Source: Clostridiales bacterium DTU089 (GTDB lineage Bacteria > Bacillota > Clostridia > Oscillospirales > Acutalibacteraceae). Taken from it: a stretch of DNA of 64,000 nucleotides. The stretch spans positions 33,900 to 97,899 of the forward strand of contig LFSB01000010.1 of assembly GCA_001513045.1 (NCBI GenBank), read 5' to 3'. Under the pieces are notes generated by a model. The model did no database searches. It worked only from the letters and a program-made list of their open reading frames with translations, and had not been told where the DNA came from. The position numbers and the translations under genes were made by a program. Shown here in pieces: positions 9,002-56,755 of this stretch (its first letter is position 1; the number at the start of each line of letters is the position of its first letter).

Positions 9002-9181
9002 TTCAAGTGATATGCCGACTTCGTCGGCGTGATATTCATGCCTTGCGACAAGAGTGATATTTCTCGCTGCGCTCGAAGTGATATTCTAATCGCGTCCAAA
9101 ACGCGCGAAGTGCATATCACTACCGAAGGTAATATCACGCGACGAAGTCGCATATAACTCGTGCTTGCGCGAATAGAACTG
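9002..9181 (+). repeat. Heptamer-hairpin structured element, copy A (candidate sRNA or structured DNA site)
   Basis: GTGATAT at 9007, 9029, 9054 and 9078, separated by hairpins. ATATCAC/ATATAAC at 9114, 9132 and 9152, also separated by hairpins. Same skeleton as 56471-56647. Confidence 0.85.
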
Positions 9182-9212
9182 AAAAACCGCCTTGCAAAGC
9201 AAGACGGTTTTT
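9182..9212. terminator. Bidirectional intrinsic terminator shared by element A and tRNA-Leu
   Basis: A5, CCGCCTTGC-AAA-GCAAGACGG, T5. The identical 30-mer recurs at 55459-55488. Confidence 0.75.
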
Positions 9213-9213
9213 C

Positions 9214-9300
9214 TGGTGCCGATGACCGGGCTTGAACCGGTACGATGTTGCCACCGAGGGATTTTAAGTCCCTTGCGTCTGCCAATTCCGCCACATCGGC
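9214..9300 (-). tRNA. tRNA-Leu (anticodon UAA), CCA encoded
   Basis: Reverse complement folds as a cloverleaf. Acceptor GCCGATG/CATCGGC, anticodon stem AGGGA/TCCCT with loop CTTAAAA, long variable arm, T-arm ACCGG-TTCAAGC-CCGGT, 3' ACCA. Confidence 0.92.
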
Positions 9301-9331
9301 ATTAACGGAGTATTGCCGCAGAACCTCAAAA

Positions 9332-9360
9332 ATTATATACAATTTCCGGTTTCATGTCAA
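9332..9360 (-). promoter_or_regulatory. Sigma-A promoter for tRNA-Leu
   Basis: On the minus strand: TTGACA, 17-nt spacer, TATAAT, about 30 nt upstream of the tRNA 5' end. Confidence 0.6.
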
Positions 9361-9397
9361 GCGAAAAGAAGGGCTTTTATGACCGGAGGGGAGTTTT

Positions 9398-10132
9398 TTA
9401 TATAACAAGGCCTCCGTTGACCGCAAGAACCTGTCCGGTGATGTAGCGGGCACTTTCGGAAAGGAGAAATTTTACCGCATGCGCAACCTCGTCCGGGGTT
9501 CCGAGTCTGCCAAGGGGAATGTCCGCGCACATGTTTTCCTTGTCCTCGGACGAAAAACCGCTCATCATATCGGTTGCGATTATTCCGGGCGCTACGCAGT
9601 TGACTGTTATCGAGCTTGGCGCAACCTCCTTGGCAAGTGCCTTTGTGAGGCCTATAATTCCGGCCTTTGCCGCCGAATAATGAACCTCGCACGAGCCGCC
9701 GGTCTGTCCCCACATGGAGGAGATATTGACGATTGAGCCGCTTTTGCGTCTTATCATATCCTTGAGCGCCTCTTTGGAGCAGTTGAATGCACCTGTCAGA
9801 TGAACTGCAAGCATACGCTCCCATTGGGAGGATGAAATATCCGAAAATACACGCTGTTCGGCTATGCCGGCGTTGTTCACAAGTGCCGTTACCTCGCCGA
9901 GGCTGAGGCGGATTTCGGAAAACATCCTTTCAACCTCGTCAGGCTCGGAAACATCCGCTTTGAAGGCTCCGGCGCGTCCGCCGTGTGAATTAATATACTC
10001 GGCAATGTCGTTGGCTGCGTCGGCGGAGTTCAGGTAGTTGACGGCAACGGAATAACCGCTCTGCGAAAGAAGCAGGGCGGTGCTTTTTCCTATTCCGCGC
10101 GAAGCGCCTGTTACGAGTACGGTTCCGCTCAT
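9398..10132 (-). CDS. SDR-family oxidoreductase (FabG-like 3-oxoacyl reductase fold)
   Basis: TGASRGIG cofactor motif, NNAG, and the S...YxxxK catalytic pattern (YSAAK). 244 aa with a GGAGGAGG SD. Confidence 0.8.
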   Translation of the reverse strand: MSGTVLVTGASRGIGKSTALLLSQSGYSVAVNYLNSADAANDIAEYINSHGGRAGAFKADVSEPDEVERMFSEIRLSLGEVTALVNNAGIAEQRVFSDISSSQWERMLAVHLTGAFNCSKEALKDMIRRKSGSIVNISSMWGQTGGSCEVHYSAAKAGIIGLTKALAKEVAPSSITVNCVAPGIIATDMMSGFSSEDKENMCADIPLGRLGTPDEVAHAVKFLLSESARYITGQVLAVNGGLVI

Positions 10133-10917
10133 TTTGAGCCTCCTCCAAAGGCGAGAAGGTCGGATGATTTGCCCTTTTCGTATCCGTCGGGAACTGCAAA
10201 ATACGCTTCGGGCGGGTCGGGCGTAAGCTCGTCTATAACAAGATCCATCTCTATAACTCCGTCAGCGTCATAGGAGGACATTTTCAGCATATTGTCTCCG
10301 CTCATATAGTATTTCACCGATGAGCCGTCTTCGGATTTGAAGTTTTTACACACAACCTTGCAGCCGTCGAGAATTTCCTCGGTTTCACCGAGATATTCCG
10401 CACTTGAGTCTGAACCGATAGAATCAAGATTGAAGCCTCCGAGTATGAAATTGGGCATATTGTAATAAAGCTTCATGTCGGGGAACAGCAGCAGACCGTC
10501 CTTGCCGTACATTATGACGGATGCCGAAAGGCCGGAAAGCTGCGTCTGCATGGATACCTTGTCGATTTTGTAGGCAATTTTTATCGGAACATATCCGGTG
10601 TCGGCATCAACATACATGCTGCCGACAAGCAAAAAGTTACGTGAATTAAAAACAGAAATATCGTCGGTGGGAACGGAAGGAGCCGTTGTTGATTCGGTTG
10701 ATGTCGGGGTTTCGCCGTCTGGCACGGAGGTCTGCTCGGAGGGGACGGACGGCTGAACCCGGTCTGTATTTATCGAGCCGGATTTATCGGCTGAATGTGT
10801 CTCCTCAAAAAAATTAATATCTCCGCCGGAGGTGGCAACAGTGGTGCCTGAGCCGCACGAGCACAGCGAGAGAACCATAACAAGCACGAATATAAAAGAG
10901 AGAGATTTTTTCAAAGC
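10129..10917 (-). CDS. Lipoprotein of unknown function
   Basis: Signal peptide ending LSLCSCGSG (lipobox-like), then a Ser/Thr/Pro-rich linker. A TTG start at 10917 is favoured by GAGGTG SD spacing. 4-nt overlap with the SDR gene. Confidence 0.55.
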   Translation of the reverse strand, partial: ALKKSLSFIFVLVMVLSLCSCGSGTTVATSGGDINFFEETHSADKSGSINTDRVQPSVPSEQTSVPDGETPTSTESTTAPSVPTDDISVFNSRNFLLVGSMYVDADTGYVPIKIAYKIDKVSMQTQLSGLSASVIMYGKDGLLLFPDMKLYYNMPNFILGGFNLDSIGSDSSAEYLGETEEILDGCKVVCKNFKSEDGSSVKYYMSGDNMLKMSSYDADGVIEMDLVIDELTPDPPEAYFAVPDGYEKGKSSDLLAFGGGSK

Positions 10918-10999
10918 TATCAACACCTCAACAAAATAATGAAATTATGATATCATTTTACACGTAAAAAGTCAAACAATACAGACGAAAAGCTTCATA

Positions 11000-11028
11000 T
11001 TGATTTTTTCTCCGCAAAAGAGTATAAT
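11000..11028 (+). promoter_or_regulatory. Sigma-A promoter for phosphoglucomutase gene
   Basis: TTGATT, 17-nt spacer, TATAAT. Confidence 0.5.
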
Positions 11029-11057
11029 ATACAACAGAATAATACATGGAGGTAGAC

Positions 11058-12782
11058 ATGATGAACGATATACATGCACTTTATGAGCTTTGGAAGGAAA
11101 AAGCGGTGCTTGACCCCGACCTTAAAACCGAGCTTGATGCCATGGAGGGCAATGAGGATGCCATACTCGACAGCTTTTACTGCAATCTGCAGTTCGGTAC
11201 GGGCGGACTTCGCGGAGTAATCGGTGCCGGAACCAACAGAATGAATGTCTATACAGTCGGGCAGACAACGCAGGGTCTTGCCGATTATCTCAATGCAAAT
11301 TTTGAAAATCCGTCGGTAGCGATAGCCTTTGACTCGCGTATAAAATCGGAGGTATTTGCACATCAGGCGGCGGGCGTTCTTGCCGCCAACGGAATAAAGG
11401 TCTATATTTATCCGGAGCTTATGCCCACGCCGATGCTTTCATTTGCGGTGAAACGTCTGGGCTGCTCGTCCGGAATAGTAATAACCGCAAGCCATAATCC
11501 TTCAAAATATAACGGATACAAGTGCTATGACCCGCACGGCTATCAGATGACCGATGAAGCTGCCGCCGCAACCTATGAATATATAGGAAAGGTCGATATA
11601 TTCACAGGCGTAAAGCGTATGGATTTTGATGACGCTCTTGCCGAGGATATGGTGGATTTCATAGAGGACTGGGTGAAAGAGGAGTTTTTTGCCGAGGTGC
11701 TCAAAACCCAGATTAATCCGGGAATATGCAAAAAAGCAGGGCTGAAAATCATATACACTCCGCTTAACGGCACCGGAAACAAGCCTGTCCGCCGTATGCT
11801 CCGTGTTGTAGGCGTAAAGGATGTTTCTGTTGTTCCCGAGCAGGAAAAGCCGGACGGACATTTCCCCACCTGCAGCTATCCTAACCCGGAATTCCGCGAG
11901 GCGTTTGAAAGCGCGTTGGCAATGGCGGAAACCTCGGATGCCGATTTGCTGATTGCAACAGACCCCGACTGTGACCGTATCGGCATAGCCGTCCATCATG
12001 ACGGGGACTATCGCCTGATGACCGGTAACGAGGTCGGAGCGATGCTTTCCGAATATATTCTCGAACAGAGAACGGCAAAGGGGAATCTTCCCGAGCATCC
12101 GTATATTCTCAAATCAATAGTAACCTCACCGCTCATATCAAAAATAGCGGAGGCTTACGGCTGTGAGATGGTCGATTTGCTCACAGGCTTTAAGTATACA
12201 GGCGAATTTATAACCAAGCTTGCCGAAAAGGGTGAGTTTGACCGCTTCCTTCTCGGAATGGAGGAGAGCTACGGCTATCTGTCGGGCGCTCAGGCGAGGG
12301 ATAAGGACGCGGTCGGCGCCTCTGTTCTTGTTGCGGAAATGGCATCTTACTACAAAACTCTCGGCATGGACCTCGTGGATTTCATGGATTCAATATACAA
12401 AAAATACGGATATTATCTCAACGTCGTTAACAACTTCGGCTTTGAGGGTGCACAGGGGATGCAGCAGATGCAGGATATAATGTCCGCGATGCGTAAGGCC
12501 GCTCCCGCACAGCTCGGCGGAAAAAAGGTGGAAAAGACATCCGACTACAAGCTCGGCGAGATTGTCTGTGTGGCATCGGGTGAAAAATGCGATACGGGAC
12601 TTCCGCGCTCAAATGTGCTTTCGTATGACCTTGAGGACGGCAATCGTGTAATGGTTCGTCCGTCGGGCACAGAGCCGAAAATAAAGGTCTATATTACCTC
12701 AAGAGCCGCCGACCGCGCAGCTGCCGAGAAGCAGGCGGAAGCGTTTTCTGCTGATATGAAAAGCCATATGGGAATCAAATAA
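11058..12782 (+). CDS. Phospho-sugar mutase (alpha-phosphoglucomutase/phosphomannomutase family)
   Basis: Active-site loop TASHNPSKYNGYK, a metal loop DPDCDRIG, and GEESYG-like MEESYGY. Start at 11058 or 11061, after a GGAGG SD. Confidence 0.88.
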   Translation: MMNDIHALYELWKEKAVLDPDLKTELDAMEGNEDAILDSFYCNLQFGTGGLRGVIGAGTNRMNVYTVGQTTQGLADYLNANFENPSVAIAFDSRIKSEVFAHQAAGVLAANGIKVYIYPELMPTPMLSFAVKRLGCSSGIVITASHNPSKYNGYKCYDPHGYQMTDEAAAATYEYIGKVDIFTGVKRMDFDDALAEDMVDFIEDWVKEEFFAEVLKTQINPGICKKAGLKIIYTPLNGTGNKPVRRMLRVVGVKDVSVVPEQEKPDGHFPTCSYPNPEFREAFESALAMAETSDADLLIATDPDCDRIGIAVHHDGDYRLMTGNEVGAMLSEYILEQRTAKGNLPEHPYILKSIVTSPLISKIAEAYGCEMVDLLTGFKYTGEFITKLAEKGEFDRFLLGMEESYGYLSGAQARDKDAVGASVLVAEMASYYKTLGMDLVDFMDSIYKKYGYYLNVVNNFGFEGAQGMQQMQDIMSAMRKAAPAQLGGKKVEKTSDYKLGEIVCVASGEKCDTGLPRSNVLSYDLEDGNRVMVRPSGTEPKIKVYITSRAADRAAAEKQAEAFSADMKSHMGIK

Positions 12783-12800
12783 AATACGGGAGTTGCAAAG

Positions 12801-13064
12801 ATGGTATCCAAAAAAATTATACGAGTGGTTTCACTTTTGCTCGCTCTGCTTATGGCTGCCGGAGCTGTGGCGGTGATTTTTCAGGTGGTTGCAAACGGGG
12901 CGGATGTGAACGCCGTTCCGGAAACCGGAAGGAATTCATCGGTGAAGGTTGTATACTTCGCCGCAGGCGCTGCGCTTATATGCGCAGGCTGTGTCATAGC
13001 CGGAAGAAAAAGGAAAAAGCCCGATGAAAGCAAGGGTGAAACCTATACCGAAAAGAACGTGTGA
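12801..13064 (+). CDS. Small pre-protein with signal peptide and LPXTG-like (VPETG) sorting signal but almost no passenger
   Basis: 87 aa. N-terminal hydrophobic span (residues 8-30), VPETG at 39-43, second hydrophobic span at 49-68, RKRKK at 69-73. GGGAG SD 8 nt upstream. Confidence 0.55.
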   Translation: MVSKKIIRVVSLLLALLMAAGAVAVIFQVVANGADVNAVPETGRNSSVKVVYFAAGAALICAGCVIAGRKRKKPDESKGETYTEKNV

Positions 13065-13108
13065 AACACAGGCAAAAAATAAAAGATTTCCCATACAAAA
13101 AATTTTTG

Positions 13109-13137
13109 TTGACAAACTTGAAAAATTAGTCTATTAT
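13109..13137 (+). promoter_or_regulatory. Sigma-A promoter for sigma-factor gene
   Basis: TTGACA, 17-nt spacer, TATTAT. Confidence 0.55.
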
Positions 13138-52957: not shown

Positions 52958-53120
52958 TTTGTTCTCCTCACCCAACATTAATTTTCGCAAATATCAACAA
53001 ACAAAAAAGTTAATATTTACACGACAAGTATATCACCATTTACTCGTTGCGTCAACTATATTCTCGTTTTTTTGCGCATACAACCCTTTATTAACTTAAA
53101 ATGTACATGAGGTGATTTGT

Positions 53121-53435
53121 TTGAGCTTTAGCGATAAGTTGCGTTCCCTTATTGAGGAAAGAAATATAACACAAAAACAGTTGGCAATGGATTTAAATAT
53201 TGCGCCCTCAACAATCGGCGGCTATGTTCAGGGAAGCAGTGAGCCGGATTTTGAAACACTGAAACGGTTGGCAAAATATTTTAATGTAAGCACCGATTAT
53301 TTGTTAAACATTCACTTGACGAACAGCGACAGTTTGAAAGAGGACGAATTACTGCGGGTTTTCCGTTCTATGACGGCAGAACAACAAAATATTTTTATCG
53401 AGCAAGGGAAGGTTTTGATAAAATACAAAAAATAA
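53121..53435 (+). CDS. XRE-family HTH transcriptional regulator
   Basis: LRSLIEERNITQKQLAMDLNIAPSTIGGYVQG is an HTH_3 domain. The TTG start at 53121 is favoured by a GAGGTG SD. Divergent from the coiled-coil gene. Confidence 0.75.
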   Translation: MSFSDKLRSLIEERNITQKQLAMDLNIAPSTIGGYVQGSSEPDFETLKRLAKYFNVSTDYLLNIHLTNSDSLKEDELLRVFRSMTAEQQNIFIEQGKVLIKYKK

Positions 53436-55255: not shown

Positions 55256-55312
55256 TGTCAGTAGGGGGATATGAACCCGAAGCCGATTTTTGGGGTGGAT
55301 TCGTACCCTCAC
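55256..55312 (+). repeat. Direct repeat DR1 flanking element C
   Basis: TGTCAGT..GGATATGAACCCGAAGCCGATTTTTGGGGTGGATTCGTACCCTCAC, about 88% identical by eye to 55490-55549. Confidence 0.8.
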
Positions 55313-55322
55313 AAAGGAACGA

Positions 55323-55455
55323 ATGAAATATTGCTGTCGCAATATGAAATAATCCTTGCGGATTATGAAATTTCCTGCTTTCGCAGAAAGTGAAATAAAA
55401 TTTGCCCCTTATGTGCCGCAGCATATTTTACTTGCCCGCGTGGCAAATTTCATTG
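55323..55455 (+). repeat. Heptamer-hairpin structured element, divergent copy C
   Basis: (A/G)TGAAAT at 55323, 55344, 55365 and 55390, separated by hairpins ATTGC-TGTC-GCAAT and AATCC-TTGC-GGATT (same loops as copy B). Long-range helix AAATTTGCC/GGCAAATTT. Confidence 0.75.
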
Positions 55456-55488
55456 AAAAAACCGCCTTGCAAAGCAAGACGGTTTTTT
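55456..55488. terminator. Bidirectional intrinsic terminator of element C
   Basis: Same CCGCCTTGC-AAA-GCAAGACGG hairpin as at 9187-9207, flanked by A6 and T6. Confidence 0.7.
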
Positions 55489-55489
55489 C

Positions 55490-55549
55490 TGGCAGTGTAA
55501 GTGGATATGAACCCGAAGCCAATTTTTTTGGGTGGATTCGTACCCTCAC
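55490..55549 (+). repeat. Direct repeat DR2 flanking element C
   Basis: Second copy of DR1. It occupies the position that a tRNA occupies next to copies A and B. Confidence 0.8.
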
Positions 55550-55588: not shown

Positions 55589-55999
55589 TTAACACATAAC
55601 CGGTTTCCACGCAAAGGGCAATAAATCACTTGCTTTTACTTTTATCAATTCGCCGTATTCATCATTTACAATGACTTTTATATCGGGACAATATTCAAAT
55701 AACATTTGACGGCAATTCCCGCAAGGTGAAATTACACAATTAAGATGTTTCTCATGGACAGCGACAATGGTGTCAAAATCTCTTTCGCCTGCCGAAATAG
55801 CAATACCCATTGTTATGTATTCCGCACAAGAACCATGGATACCGTCACAATTTACTCCTTTATAAACATGCCCGTTGCGACATAGTAATGCGCATCCGAC
55901 TGTATGATTATATATACCATCATCAAAATTCTGTTCTAATATATTTAGGCCTTCCTTTATTAGTTCCCTGTCTTTTTCGGTTATTGTATATTTCTCCAC
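55589..55999 (-). CDS. Small cytidine-deaminase-fold protein, blasticidin-S deaminase (Bsr/BSD)-like
   Basis: Zn ligands (H/C)AE (GSCAEY) and PCGNC. The FDTIVAV block and overall length of 136 aa resemble Bsr as I remember it. GTG start with GAGGAG SD. Confidence 0.75.
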   Translation of the reverse strand: MEKYTITEKDRELIKEGLNILEQNFDDGIYNHTVGCALLCRNGHVYKGVNCDGIHGSCAEYITMGIAISAGERDFDTIVAVHEKHLNCVISPCGNCRQMLFEYCPDIKVIVNDEYGELIKVKASDLLPFAWKPVMC

Positions 56000-56069: not shown

Positions 56070-56426
56070 TCAACATTTGCTTTTCTTTGCGGTGTTGATG
56101 GAAGCAATGAGCATACGGCGAATTGATCCGCAGGTGCTTTGTAGTGATTGATATTGCTCGTTTGGTATATAGCCGGTCTCCGAAAGCAACTCAAGCCAAT
56201 ACTCGGTTTCATAACACTCTTTTTGCGCGATTTCAAGCTTCGATATGAAATCTTTTGTTCCTTGCGCATATTGTGCTTCATGAAGATTTGCGCCGATTGA
56301 TGTTCCGGAACGCAAAAGTTGATTGGTCAGTACCGATTCCCGTTGATTTGCTTTTATATCTCTGCAAAGATAGACGATTTGCTTTGCAAATTCTTTGGCT
56401 TTATTCCTTAAAATGCTATCAGCCAC
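56070..56426 (-). CDS. Four-helix-bundle protein (23S rRNA intervening-sequence protein family)
   Basis: LLRSGTSIGANLHEAQYAQGTKDFISKLEIAQKECYETEYWLELL is the family signature. Confidence 0.78.
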   Translation of the reverse strand: MADSILRNKAKEFAKQIVYLCRDIKANQRESVLTNQLLRSGTSIGANLHEAQYAQGTKDFISKLEIAQKECYETEYWLELLSETGYIPNEQYQSLQSTCGSIRRMLIASINTAKKSKC

Positions 56427-56470
56427 AAGTATCACCTCTTTAATAAAGTATAGTATAAATCTTTAGCTCT

Positions 56471-56647
56471 GTAAAGTGATATGCCGCTGTCGCGGCGTGA
56501 TATTCTTGCCTTGCGGCAAGAGTGATATTTCTCGCTGCGCTCGAAGTGATATTCTATTCGCCTCTCACGCCCGCAGGCATATCACTCGGCGTAGCCGAAT
56601 ATCACGCCCCAAAGGGGCATATAACTCGCCGCAGGCGAATAGAACTG
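56471..56647 (+). repeat. Heptamer-hairpin structured element, copy B (candidate sRNA or structured DNA site)
   Basis: GTGATAT at 56476, 56497, 56522 and 56546. ATATCAC/ATATAAC at 56579, 56599 and 56619. Hairpins lie between every pair of heptamers. Confidence 0.85.
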
Positions 56648-56680
56648 AAAAAAGCACATCGCATTGCGATGTGCTTTTTT
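56648..56680. terminator. Bidirectional intrinsic terminator shared by element B and tRNA-Gly
   Basis: A6, GCACATCGC-ATT-GCGATGTGC, T6, ending 1 nt from the tRNA CCA end. Confidence 0.8.
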
Positions 56681-56681
56681 C

Positions 56682-56755
56682 TGGAGCGGAAGAGGGGAAT
56701 CGAACCCCCGCTATCTGCTTGGGAAGCAGAAGTTCTGCCATTAAACTACTCCCGC
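56682..56755 (-). tRNA. tRNA-Gly (anticodon CCC), CCA encoded
   Basis: Reverse complement is GCGGGAG-TA-GTTTAATGGCAGAAC-T-TCTGC-TTCCCAA-GCAGA-TAGC-GGGGG-TTCGATT-CCCCT-CTTCCGC-T-CCA, a 74-nt cloverleaf. Confidence 0.92.

Follow-up and report, generated by a model that had tools for sequence, protein, structure and literature searches.

The 210-nt module beside tRNA-Gly in the window (the whole 64,000-nt stretch of Clostridiales bacterium DTU089 DNA analysed here) is a copy of Gut-1, an Rfam motif, and the explanation that we tentatively place first, at a little short of even confidence, is that it serves a family of small mobile cassettes of gut-type Clostridia as a cis element at the DNA level. 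What Rfam models is just one arm, the one nearer the terminator, of a dyad with mirror symmetry, and this dyad resembles a mobile gene cassette's DNA signature more than it does a stand-alone small RNA (sRNA) gene. Gut-1 was catalogued in 2010 and described as a stand-alone sRNA of the human gut only, function unknown, with a rating of 'RNA: Y' from Weinberg et al. (PMC2864571); our literature search for Gut-1 or RF01706 found nothing beyond that paper. The added context makes two orphan functions testable together, that of Gut-1 and that of the very widespread 'four helix bundle / 23S rRNA IVS' proteins. Among the latter is a clade that a Gut-1 dyad almost always precedes.

A known motif as one arm of a dyad

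A preliminary description of the window had offered the module as a candidate new element, subject to comparison with known Rfam families. That comparison (cmscan) matched positions 56574–56647 of the minus strand to the full Gut-1 model (RF01706, model positions 1–77; 66.8 bits, E = 4.1 × 10−11), above the Rfam gathering score of 50 bits, and the motif is therefore not new. The left arm (plus strand, 56474–56557) also resembled Gut-1 (38.9 bits, below the gathering score). As expected of Gut-1, the right arm has three hairpins, GUGAAAU-like linkers (GUGAAAU/GUGAUAU) and stems with covariation support, belongs to gut-type uncultivated Clostridia and lies in the context of the published seed alignment, the order of which is tRNA, terminator, Gut-1 and inverted heptamer array. 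It departs from the published description in being one half of a dyad, in a metagenome-assembled genome (MAG) assembly (GCA_012933745.1), in stem and loop statistics that point to DNA hairpins on the opposite strand, and in the linkage of the element to a four-helix-bundle gene and cassette-like cargo.

The regular layout first described held when the sequence was re-read (Table 1): four GTGATAT heptamers separated by two hairpins and a weaker third, followed by reverse heptamers (ATATCAC twice, then ATATAAC) that are again separated by hairpins, and a bidirectional terminator ending 1 nt from the CCA of tRNA-Gly. This terminator hairpin comprises A6, 17-bp arms and T6, and its inverted repeat is 100% complementary (repeat search and terminator scan). 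The window contains 20 GTGATAT heptamers where 5.7 would be expected, a count that none of 100 shuffles reached, and 14 of them fall within two modules. Folding against shuffles gave z = −9.0 for the plus strand of dyad B and z = −9.6 for the minus strand; neither strand folds better, and thermodynamics give no strand choice. The view of a genuine non-coding, highly structured, multi-copy module was borne out.

Table 1. Features of dyad B, its surroundings and the other copies in the window (H, hairpin).
Feature	Position	Strand	Basis or remark
Left (forward) half, dyad B	56476–56552	+	Four GTGATAT (56476, 56497, 56522, 56546) split by H1–H3; heptamer enrichment, Rfam
H1, GCCGC-TGTC-GCGGC	56483–56496	+	Sequence
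H2, TCTTGCC-TTGC-GGCAAGA	56504–56521	+	Sequence
H3, weaker	56529–56545	+	Sequence
Box a, TCTATTCGCC	56553–56562	+	5′ arm of conserved long-range pairing
Right half, dyad B (Rfam Gut-1 match)	56574–56647	−	cmscan
Right-half heptamers	ATATCAC 56579, 56599; ATATAAC 56619; ATAGAAC 56639		Plus-strand reading
Right-half hairpins	56569–56578, 56586–56598, 56606–56618, 56626–56638		
Box c, GGCGAATAGA	56634–56643	+	3′ arm of long-range pairing
Bidirectional intrinsic-terminator-like hairpin	56647–56681	.	Common to dyad B and tRNA-Gly
tRNA-Gly(ccc)	56682–56755	−	ARAGORN; Rfam tRNA 66.1 bits; 3′ end at terminator
Sigma-70-like promoter, TTTACA-17-TATACT	56447–56475	−	Promoter scan, 10/12 matches
Four-helix-bundle protein gene, TIGR02436 / PF05635 '23S rRNA intervening sequence protein', Avd-like	56070–56435	−	
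Cytidine-deaminase-family cargo gene	55589–55999	−	Pfam PF00383; NCBIfam matches below cutoffs
Module A, solo dyad without four-helix-bundle gene	9005–9212	+	Rfam, sequence
tRNA-Leu(taa)	9214–9300	−	Adjoins module A terminator
Module C, diverged dyad, TGAAAT heptamers	55292–55489	+	Rfam, sequence
52-nt direct repeat	55261–55312 and 55497–55549	.	90–96% identity, spacing 236–237 nt

Two further full copies had been reported and both are present, module A beside tRNA-Leu and module C. Their Gut-1 scores stay below 50 bits: 49.1 bits on the minus strand (9109–9181) and 35.3 bits on the plus strand (9005–9089) for module A, and 44.2 bits on the plus strand (55292–55376) and 23.3 bits on the minus strand (55365–55455) for module C, in which AAATTTGCC and GGCAAATTT form a separate long-range pair and a terminator hairpin spans 55455–55489 (inverted repeat search). 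The additional claim of two fragments was checked in part, and a 52-nt direct repeat was found, with one copy on each side of module C; the repeat takes in the initial 26 nt of the module. The remainder of the repeat looks like the 3′ end of a pseudo-tRNA, at a place where ARAGORN calls no tRNA. For the SDR protein beside copy A, the only identical records were those of the source genome and of one identical contig.

For comparison, we surveyed more than 120 loci of gut and rumen Clostridia, with 94 arrays drawn from 120 loci; the search pattern dictated the forward heptamers, which are thus subject to ascertainment bias. A stereotyped dyad was present in approximately 50 of the 94 arrays, and across the surveyed loci Gut-1 was one arm of a ~200-nt dyad with four 'heptamer + mini-hairpin' units on one strand and three or four on the other. 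Without exception the dyad lay directly past a terminator, that of either a tRNA gene or a protein gene, and in a single polarity; its right-hand neighbour was a convergent gene or tRNA ending 0–20 nt from the hairpin. Several MAGs held more than one copy (the window has three within 64 kb), and neighbouring genes were unrelated even between loci with a near-identical module and hairpin. Approximately 94% of the dyads were solo, many of them enclosed by locus-specific halves of a terminator (A-run/stem ... stem/T-run), and perfect, locus-specific outer inverted repeats of 13–41 nt surrounded units of ~330 to 1,300 nt. These outer repeats could represent a closing helix that covaries, and not a target that was split. 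Across many genera, conservation extends to the heptamers, the closing C:G pairs, the kinds of loop and both boxes (a and c), and the stem sequences turn over; within one species, dyad polymorphism was about that of third codon positions (few sites and small counts), which gives no sign of strong constraint, and indels of whole units were seen.

Outside chromosomes, matches were few. Annotated plasmid collections gave no array match, and phages gave one weak match, on an unannotated contig. A degenerate viral scan (GTGAWAT three times) returned almost only chance matches, including giant-virus bins, and was discarded; a strict-pattern scan yielded only two genuine viral arrays. A second conserved motif, which lies near many of the copies and is absent from the window, had no Rfam match.

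Covariation and strand-specific signals

In the right-arm hairpins, 98% of cells were paired and 13 of 17 pairs had changed on both sides, a level that none of 500 shuffles reached. Hairpin covariation is also compatible with RNA. At longer range, two pairings had been proposed. That of forward with reverse heptamers failed: it showed no covariation, its values were indistinguishable from shuffles, and changes in the reverse heptamers were uncompensated (17 of 48 cells unpaired at one position). The alternative, TTCTATTCGCC with GGCGAATAGAA, was complementary in all 50 of 50 modules, and its variable position (box a position 2) was A–T, T–A or C–G. Taken as the 10-nt pairing of TCTATTCGCC with GGCGAATAGA, 98.3% of cells were paired, with pair 9–114 distributed as AU20/CG14/UA14, and this covarying 10-bp helix brackets the right arm. 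Since box c overlaps the 3′ arm of the local hairpin at 56626–56638, it has two alternative partners.

Stems were almost purely Watson–Crick, with 873 such pairs against 8 G:T and 15 A:C in left halves and 155 against 2 G:T and 0 A:C in right halves. The stability needs of short stems (5–7 bp) might alone account for an exclusion of G:U. Loops were closed by C:G in 87% of cases and were strongly strand-biased: the ATATCAC strand had 48 GNA triloops and 37 GNNA tetraloops, the other strand 3 and 0, and the bias was mirrored between the two halves of the dyad. DNA mini-hairpins of the GCGNAGC/GCGNNAGC type have exceptional stability and are found at single-strand initiation sites (PMC13037366). 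The near-absence of wobble pairs, the loop types, the equal folding of the two strands and, in copy B, the order of terminator, dyad and promoter on the gene strand count for DNA over RNA.

Linkage to a four-helix-bundle gene and evidence bearing on mobility

The product of the gene beside dyad B is a four-helix-bundle protein (Pfam E = 4.6 × 10−29; NCBIfam 112.5 bits, cutoff 24; PDB 2RLD, E = 3.5 × 10−38), with a weak match to the bAvd Pfam family (17.6 bits against a cutoff of 40) and no identical copy on record. Among 70 relatives of this gene, 66 had a dyad directly upstream, and the dyad-linked relatives followed at least six different tRNAs, or no tRNA; the converse linkage was low, with the gene beside only ~6% of dyads (5–6 of 94 arrays). 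The −35 box of the promoter at dyad B touches the first heptamer, and the promoter reads away from the dyad into the four-helix-bundle gene. Equivalent promoters occur in other copies linked to this gene, with the −35 box 1–8 nt from the last heptamer. On the gene strand, copy B presents a strong terminator before the dyad and a promoter after it; as a general layout this order was rejected, the strict rule leaving an outward promoter only in the four-helix-bundle-linked copies and one other. A complete unit runs from the terminal hairpin through the dyad, sigma-70 promoter and four-helix-bundle gene (TIGR02436/PF05635) to a variable cargo gene, and the window holds one such unit (dyad B, four-helix-bundle gene, deaminase). 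PADLOC matched none of the island genes to known defence systems.

From 56710 to 55598, the window is 69% identical over 1.15 kb to four loci (L394, L400, L399 and L126), and in three of these (the metagenome loci L394, L399 and L400) the dyad/four-helix-bundle/deaminase unit is set after tRNA-Tyr(gta). The same unit behind different tRNAs argues for mobility. Against it, the complete units contained neither a recombinase nor a transposase, and none was found beside them. As regards the usual marks of tRNA-targeting integrative elements (an integrase gene at one end and flanking direct repeats of the tRNA 3′ end), no integrase lies near copies A, B or C, module C sits between the 52-nt direct repeats, and an integrase with mob genes lies beside the array in one outside locus (L169). 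Copy B yielded no pair of occupied and empty sites, as synteny beside tRNA-Gly is lost even where proteins are 84% identical. The 746-aa gene on the far side of tRNA-Gly has homologues (84% and ~65% identity), with neither a tRNA nor a dyad upstream of them.

If the dyad is indeed part of a mobile cassette, units would insert at or into terminator hairpins and then spread, and a dyad on its own would be a copy that has decayed or lacks autonomy. It is as DNA, single-stranded or extruded, that the hairpins would act, which would explain both the pure Watson–Crick stems and the C-GNA-G loops, and the invariant heptamers displayed between them may be protein recognition sites. The most economical candidate binder would be the co-travelling Avd-like four-helix-bundle protein, possibly with a recombinase supplied in trans; that this protein binds the heptamer array we purely infer. 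As a side effect, the element would supply or preserve terminators between adjacent genes. Were this DNA reading true, the Rfam 'sRNA' family would be reclassified, the units would show how small cargo genes spread behind tRNA genes and terminators in abundant gut Clostridia, and the recurrent assembly breaks at dyad sites would be explained.

A narrower version of the cassette reading is doubtful, and we rank it below the structured RNA weighed in the next section. By this account, the Gut-1 dyad and the TIGR02436/PF05635 protein would together form a previously unrecognised kind of mobile cassette that targets terminator-hairpin loops or adjacent sites, behind both tRNA and protein genes, and is akin in mechanism to the PF05635 intervening sequences of 23S rRNA. 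A probably pentameric, Avd-like protein would recognise the 4–5 DNA mini-hairpins presented by the invariant heptamers, the many solo Gut-1 copies would be non-autonomous derivatives of the cassette, and the Rfam entry 'Gut-1 sRNA' would describe a DNA element, and on the wrong strand.

Alternative explanations

The most serious rival, possible although we think it unlikely, is a structured RNA as annotated in Rfam: either a minus-strand Gut-1 or 3′ trailer, co-transcribed by read-through from the upstream tRNA or gene, or the plus-strand sRNA first proposed (170–200 nt), ending at the bidirectional terminator, with the hairpins in both versions displaying single-stranded heptamers to an RNA-binding protein or nuclease. 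The match above the gathering score, the original authors' 'RNA: Y' (PMC2864571) and the strong covariation of hairpins and long-range helix all fit such an RNA, as do the right arm, which is always co-directional with the upstream gene or tRNA, and the forward-only arrays of phage contig L115, which lie between cistrons in mRNA sense. However, on neither strand does G:U exceed A:C or other mismatches in frequency; the arms are mirror images, so any single transcript holds one of them in antisense; and in tRNA-linked copies such as B a strong terminator separates the tRNA from the dyad. For the plus strand, H3 and F4 form a promoter-like TTGAAA-16/17-TGaTATTAT (−35 at least 4/6 in 29 of 50 modules) that would drive a ~120-nt RNA through the right arm, but this internal site is weak (TTTCTC / TATTCT) in both GTGATAT-type copies of the window, and a promoter scan found no plus-strand promoter upstream of array B. 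GNRA-type loops do lie on the plus strand of the right arm, but C-GNA-G triloops are known for their stability in DNA, not RNA, and the GNA loops are on the strand opposite to the annotated one. Were the RNA reading true, the element would stay an ordinary, unexplained member of a known orphan family.

The remaining explanations are improbable to varying degrees. In a double-stranded operator or centromere-like array, the foremost of them, the heptamers would bind a ribbon-helix-helix or similar repeat-binding protein that controls the dyad-abutting promoter or tethers DNA. The omega/ParB protein of pSM19035 binds 5′-WATCACW-3′ heptads, direct and inverted, that overlap promoters, with at least four repeats needed; these heptads must be contiguous (at least two for binding, at least four for partition), and interruption abolishes function (PMC9499535). 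The heptamer with its flanking base (TATCACT) fits WATCACW, there are ~4 units per arm, the 21–25 bp heptamer spacing is close to two helical turns, and in four-helix-bundle units the −35 box is adjacent (1–8 nt). Yet heptamers here are 14–18 bp apart where omega heptads are contiguous, those of the right arm are degenerate (ATAnnAC), so that the ATCAC core is often lost, most dyads are without an adjacent promoter, no ribbon-helix-helix gene is linked except NikA/MobC in the single locus L169, and palindromic spacers with compensatory changes and strand-biased loops are left without a reason. Still less probable is a functionless, MITE-like palindromic repeat whose perfect hairpins arise through replication template-switching (quasi-palindrome correction) rather than selection. 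Copies are indeed many, dispersed and intergenic, wobble pairs are nearly absent, and unit-number indels and roughly neutral within-species polymorphism (on small counts) are as expected, but such a repeat would not be expected to conserve heptamers, closing C:G pairs, loop types and boxes a and c across genera despite stem turnover, to keep a fixed polarity relative to the upstream gene or to be tightly linked to one protein clade. Least probable of all, in our judgement, is a pair of signals, one on each strand, for single-strand DNA initiation or transfer (ssi, sso or oriT type) that mobilisable elements left behind after integrating, with the mini-hairpins serving priming or relaxase recognition in single-stranded DNA. 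C-GNA-G mini-hairpins do occur at the G4 origin, ssiA of RSF1010 and N4 promoters; the stable-loop strand switches at the dyad centre and, judging from loop counts, would be the lagging-strand template for forks diverging from there; and locus L169 has a 4-unit array in oriT position, upstream of nikA/mobC, a relaxase and an integrase. But mob genes lie near only 1 of the 120 loci, plasmids gave no match and phages one weak match, and origins would not readily account for dozens of chromosomal copies that follow ordinary genes. A relaxase/oriT link as a general explanation was rejected, L169 being the one locus with mob genes beside its array.

Comparison with known systems

The preliminary description did not recognise the module as a riboswitch, CRISPR array, type III antitoxin (ToxI-type) array or classical REP, and we concur. 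CRISPR arrays have direct repeats of at least 23 nt and unique, non-palindromic spacers of similar length; here the repeat is only 7 nt, the 'spacers' are palindromes of 13–18 nt and half of the array is inverted. ToxI arrays are tandem, near-identical repeats of ~36 nt directly upstream of a toxin endoribonuclease gene, whereas the present units are ~22–24 nt with differing stems, and have diverse neighbours and no PADLOC match. REP/BIME elements have conserved palindromic units of ~35 nt, in which the stem sequence is kept, and a 5′ GTAG-type foot, whereas here the stems differ from unit to unit and from copy to copy and the 7-nt linker is conserved. Like REP/BIME and BOX/RUP/Correia (MITE-like) elements, the dyads are dispersed, multi-copy, modular palindromes, direct and inverted, at intergenic gene 3′ ends or terminators, and vary in unit number; in those elements, however, the hairpin sequence is conserved, whereas in the dyad stems turn over and linkers are invariant. 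The dyad is also specifically linked to a TIGR02436 gene; no transposase was found, and no RAYT (Y1 transposase) among the annotated ORFs near the three window copies.

An omega-type operator or parS was likewise set aside: the dyad resembles pSM19035 operators (TATCACT, direct and inverted, ~4 per arm, promoter adjacent), but palindromes split the heptads and no ribbon-helix-helix gene lies beside the window copies. With the G4 origin, RSF1010 ssiA/ssiB and N4 early promoters the dyad shares short-stem C-GNA-G/C-GNNA-G loops (one dyad hairpin is often literally GCGAAGC) and, as with ssiA and ssiB, signals on opposite strands; ssi mini-hairpins, however, are single and belong to replicons and phages, whereas dyads have 3–4 per arm at many chromosomal intergenic sites, with no primase or replication gene linked to them. 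A diversity-generating retroelement, the context of Avd, would have a reverse transcriptase and a TR/VR repeat pair beside the Avd-like gene; it was rejected, since deaminase and GNAT acetyltransferase genes are the neighbours and no reverse transcriptase is among them.

In 23S rRNA intervening sequences, a PF05635 open reading frame lies in an insertion bracketed by inverted repeats, in a hairpin loop of a stable-RNA locus. The dyad units would resemble them in encoding a PF05635 protein within a stem-bracketed insertion, but they lie after tRNA or mRNA terminators, not in rRNA, and carry heptamer–hairpin arrays, their own promoter and cargo genes. An integron proper was rejected, there being no integrase between alr (50841) and tRNA-Gly, no IntI or attI, and a consensus (GTGATAT/ATATCAC) that does not fit the RYYYAAC/GTTRRRY core sites of attC. 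Dyads further differ from attC in being arrays of mini-hairpins rather than one long bulged hairpin, and their units in having their own promoters and locations set by terminators and tRNAs. Shared with attC cassettes are small cargo genes (GNAT acetyltransferase, deaminase, unknown proteins of 100–200 aa), each with an imperfect palindromic site, and conserved 7-mers with variable paired parts, presumed to work once a single DNA strand has folded; the window itself has a cassette-like succession of dyad B, four-helix-bundle gene, deaminase, dyad C and GNAT.

Gut-1 membership and architecture

The module beside tRNA-Gly(ccc) (module B) is real and was well described, and it is a further member of a known, function-unknown family, Gut-1, not a new class. 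All the forward and reverse heptamers and hairpins read in the preliminary description are present in the sequence (see the table), its terminator is a perfect 17-bp inverted repeat that scored as such and ends 1 nt from the CCA of the tRNA, and the two further full copies it reported were found (modules A and C, for exactly three in the window). GTGATAT occurs 20 times in the window versus 5.7 expected (0 of 100 shuffles reach 20), and each strand of module B folds ~9 standard deviations better than shuffles. The novelty that it also suggested is refuted by an Rfam match, the outcome that the same description had set as its refutation: Gut-1 (RF01706) scores 66.8 bits (gathering score 50, E = 4e-11). 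The gathering score is reached only on the terminator-proximal arm, on the strand opposite to the forward array; the left arm of module B scores 38.9 bits on the plus strand, and copies A and C score 49.1/35.3 and 44.2/23.3 bits on opposite strands. Because the model passes on one arm only, 'Gut-1' is one arm of a dyad, in which a left arm of GTGATAT heptamers and hairpins is mirrored by a right arm with ATATCAC. The published seed alignment with flanks already runs from tRNA 3' end to terminator, Gut-1 and an inverted ATATCAC heptamer run, so the window copy is a typical member. Gut-1 was described, from human-gut metagenomes only, as a probable non-coding RNA, with no function offered (Weinberg et al. 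2010; PMC2864571); our literature search found nothing later on it.

Features of the three modules and their surroundings (window coordinates)
Feature	Position	Strand	Remark
Module A	9005-9212		beside tRNA-Leu
Terminator of copy A	9179-9213
ORFs of 288 and 223 aa	52124-54421		between alr and the cassette region
Xre-type HTH gene	53112-53435		between the two ORFs
52-nt direct repeat	55261-55312, 55497-55549		flanks module C
Module C	55292-55489
Terminator of copy C	55455-55489
Proposed cassette unit	56681 to 55598		terminator, dyad B, four-helix-bundle gene, cytidine-deaminase-family gene
Four-helix-bundle protein gene (TIGR02436/PF05635)	56070-56435	minus	beside copy B
Module B	56474-56681
Forward GTGATAT heptamers	56476, 56497, 56522, 56546
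Forward hairpins	56483-56496, 56504-56521, 56529-56545
Gut-1 match	56574-56647	minus
Reverse heptamers	56579, 56599, 56619		ATATCAC, ATATCAC, ATATAAC
Reverse hairpins	56586-56598, 56606-56618, 56626-56638
Terminator of module B	56647-56681
tRNA-Gly(ccc)	56682-56755	minus

Scanning one genome per species for three spaced GTGATAT heptamers gave at least 120 loci. Among the matches listed, hosts were almost all gut or rumen Clostridia MAGs (Oscillospiraceae, Acutalibacteraceae, Christensenellaceae and Ruminococcus), several with more than one copy, and ~50 of the 94 non-redundant arrays had a single layout: aGTTTTWA, three GTGATAT-plus-hairpin units, a fourth GTGATAT, box a (TnTATTCGCC) and an A-rich linker, followed by hairpin, ATATCAC, hairpin, ATATCAC, hairpin, ATAKMAC, TCGCC-nnn-GGCGAATAn'A (box c), ACTG and a strong terminal hairpin. 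A forward-only subfamily of 4-5 units (genome loci L146, L208, L210, L223, L224 and L234) has a palindromic GTTGYGGAATATTCC-like box in place of the inverted arm, with two such arrays in tandem in L208. Long tandem arrays containing GTGATAT with a 21-23-nt period occur in Prevotellaceae, Rikenellaceae and other MAGs (L149, L184, L193, L199 and L240, the last with >15 units) and may be unrelated tandem repeats.

Pairing and strand statistics

In an alignment of 48 centre-plus-right arms, the four local hairpins were 98.0% paired, with both-sided changes at 13 of 17 pairs (0 of 500 shuffles as high). The alternative long-range pairing put forward earlier, between boxes a and c, held up at 98.3% paired; at the variable pair, 20 sequences have AU, 14 CG and 14 UA, with no cell unpaired. 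This helix and the last local hairpin compete for GGCGA. The proposed pairing of forward with reverse heptamers fell away: its counts equal those of shuffles, and reverse heptamers decay to ATAnnAC uncompensated.

Stems contained 873 Watson-Crick, 8 G:T and 15 A:C pairs in left arms and 155, 2 and 0, respectively, in right arms; on neither strand were wobble pairs commoner than other mismatches. The closing pair was C:G in 87% of regular hairpins, and loops on the ATATCAC strand included 48 GNA triloops (C-GAA-G in 28) and 37 GNNA tetraloops, versus 3 and 0 on the GTGATAT strand. GCGAAGC is often the literal sequence of one hairpin; GCGNAGC/GCGNNAGC are DNA mini-hairpins of exceptional stability that occur at the G4 origin, ssiA of RSF1010 and N4 promoters (PMC13037366). 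The 'structure-optimised' strand is the opposite of the Rfam annotation and switches at the dyad centre, and both arms cannot be in the optimised sense on one transcript.

Dispersal and the linked gene

Next to the terminal hairpin is either a convergent gene, with its stop codon 0-20 nt away, or a tRNA (at least 10 different isoacceptors), whose CCA end the hairpin abuts. Different loci have unrelated neighbouring proteins, even for modules and hairpins that are almost identical, and similarity ends right after the terminal hairpin, as expected of a dispersed repeat. At no fewer than 15 loci, the sequence beyond this hairpin (8-15 nt and a T-run) is matched by an exact reverse complement, an A-run plus 8-15 nt, 96-200 nt left of the array (620-1,085 nt in gene-carrying copies), so that the whole unit lies inside an apparent split, locus-specific bidirectional terminator; alternatively, a covarying outer helix may close the unit. 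No empty site was obtained among homologous loci of copies A and B, and no recombinase was found in or next to complete units.

The closest solved relative of the window four-helix-bundle protein is 2RLD (five chains in the deposit), and the protein has a weak Pfam match to bAvd; in diversity-generating retroelements, Avd is a basic barrel of five subunits (PMC6182149). The four-helix-bundle gene adjoins only 5-6 of the 94 arrays among the matches listed. The converse association is almost complete: relatives (71-84% identity) are encoded at 70 metagenome loci that could be assessed, and 66 of these have a dyad directly upstream. Such loci run from a tRNA or gene through the terminal hairpin, the right and then the left arm and a sigma-70 promoter (-35 box 1-8 nt past the last heptamer) to the four-helix-bundle gene, with a second conserved motif, a variable cargo gene and the matching outer repeat on the 3' side of that gene. 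Copy B likewise has a strong terminator before and a promoter after the dyad on the gene strand; a promoter scan found no plus-strand promoter upstream of its array. Over 1.15 kb, the window unit shares 69% identity with units at L394, L400, L399 and L126, the metagenome loci among which belong to the set behind tRNA-Tyr(gta), not tRNA-Gly(ccc); the unit has relocated between tRNA loci. Past the deaminase gene, the minus strand continues with a pseudo-tRNA-like 3' end, a terminator, dyad C, a second such fragment and a GNAT gene, and the series looks like successive cassettes.

The 52-nt repeat seems to comprise a pseudo-tRNA 3' end (ARAGORN called no tRNA there) and the first 26 nt of module C; its second copy ends ...ACTGCCA on the minus strand, directly before the terminator, and the duplication could be att-like or reflect tandem cassette accretion. 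The second conserved motif (~55 nt; GGGTWTGGGC..GCCC..GCATTTGTA.nTACAAATGC..GAAAC.GG) does not occur in the window and matches no Rfam family at gathering level. Where the four-helix-bundle gene is present, it follows the stop codon and precedes variable cargo genes (L388, L393, L408); it also lies near many gene-less dyads in either orientation, including in left module flanks (L134/L187/L195, L237/L172, L191/L220/L228).

Interpretation

Tentatively, we read the module as the cis-acting DNA part of a family of small mobile cassettes, our leading if still uncertain interpretation. Complete units would carry the four-helix-bundle gene and cargo and insert into terminators, and solo dyads such as window copy A would be non-autonomous or decayed copies. 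The hairpins would act as DNA and the invariant heptamers as putative protein recognition sites, and the most economical candidate for binding them is the four-helix-bundle protein that travels with the dyad. Weak points of this reading are that neither a recombinase nor an empty site was found in the searches above, and that within-species polymorphism, at small counts, revealed no strong constraint on the dyad. The added context, namely the dyad, hairpins of DNA type and a four-helix-bundle clade almost always tied to Gut-1, unites two orphan features in a single testable hypothesis.

A structured RNA, on either strand, is rather unlikely, yet has several points in its favour: the original authors judged Gut-1 to be RNA, covariation is strong, the right arm and upstream gene are always co-directional, a viral contig (L115) carries intercistronic forward-only arrays in mRNA sense, and some modules have a promoter-like site at the third forward hairpin and fourth heptamer (-35 match of at least 4/6 in 29 of 50), although this site is weak in the window copies. 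Several independent signals lean towards DNA over RNA: the almost purely Watson-Crick stems, the C:G closing pairs and strand-biased loops, the likeness to stable DNA mini-hairpins, the switch of the optimised strand at the dyad centre, and the place of dyad B between a terminator and a promoter. We consider a duplex operator of the omega-heptad type improbable and functionless palindromic repeats more doubtful still. Single-strand signals of the ssi/oriT type seem the least probable.

Observations at individual loci

Copies A and C have almost the same terminator hairpin (CCGCCTTGC-AAA-GCAAGACGG, plus A and T runs), and their dyads are of two heptamer subtypes (GTGATAT and TGAAAT), a combination suggestive of recombination between copies. 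An independently assembled Logan contig (L242) is identical to window 9183-13132 and ends inside the copy-A terminator, consistent with assembly breaks at a multi-copy repeat. Neither Pfam, NCBIfam nor PADLOC gave a match for the 288- and 223-aa ORFs.

Human-gut loci behind tRNA-Arg(acg) (L331-L382) provided a population sample of 33 loci with 26 distinct sequences. The right arm of one strain has lost 36 nt, from heptamer to heptamer, and the last hairpin has a 13:13 G/A polymorphism, read as C.A on the Gut-1 strand and as G:T on the opposite one. The Rfam seed BAAZ01025322 is apparently of this locus type and would therefore also adjoin a four-helix-bundle gene. The viral contig IMGVR_UViG_3300028832_000052 (L115:3780-4390) has two forward-only arrays of GC-rich mini-hairpins with mRNA-sense heptamers, each beginning directly after a stop codon and sharing the first hairpin, in a co-directional block (615 aa, array, 98 aa, array, 137 aa, 788 aa). 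At L169:330-4705, the only mob-gene case among the matches listed (120 loci), a four-unit GTGATAT-hairpin array lies directly upstream of a divergent NikA/MobC ribbon-helix-helix gene, where the oriT of an integrative mobilisable element would be, with genes for a MobA/VirD2-type relaxase, a tyrosine integrase and an HTH_17 excisionase-like protein.
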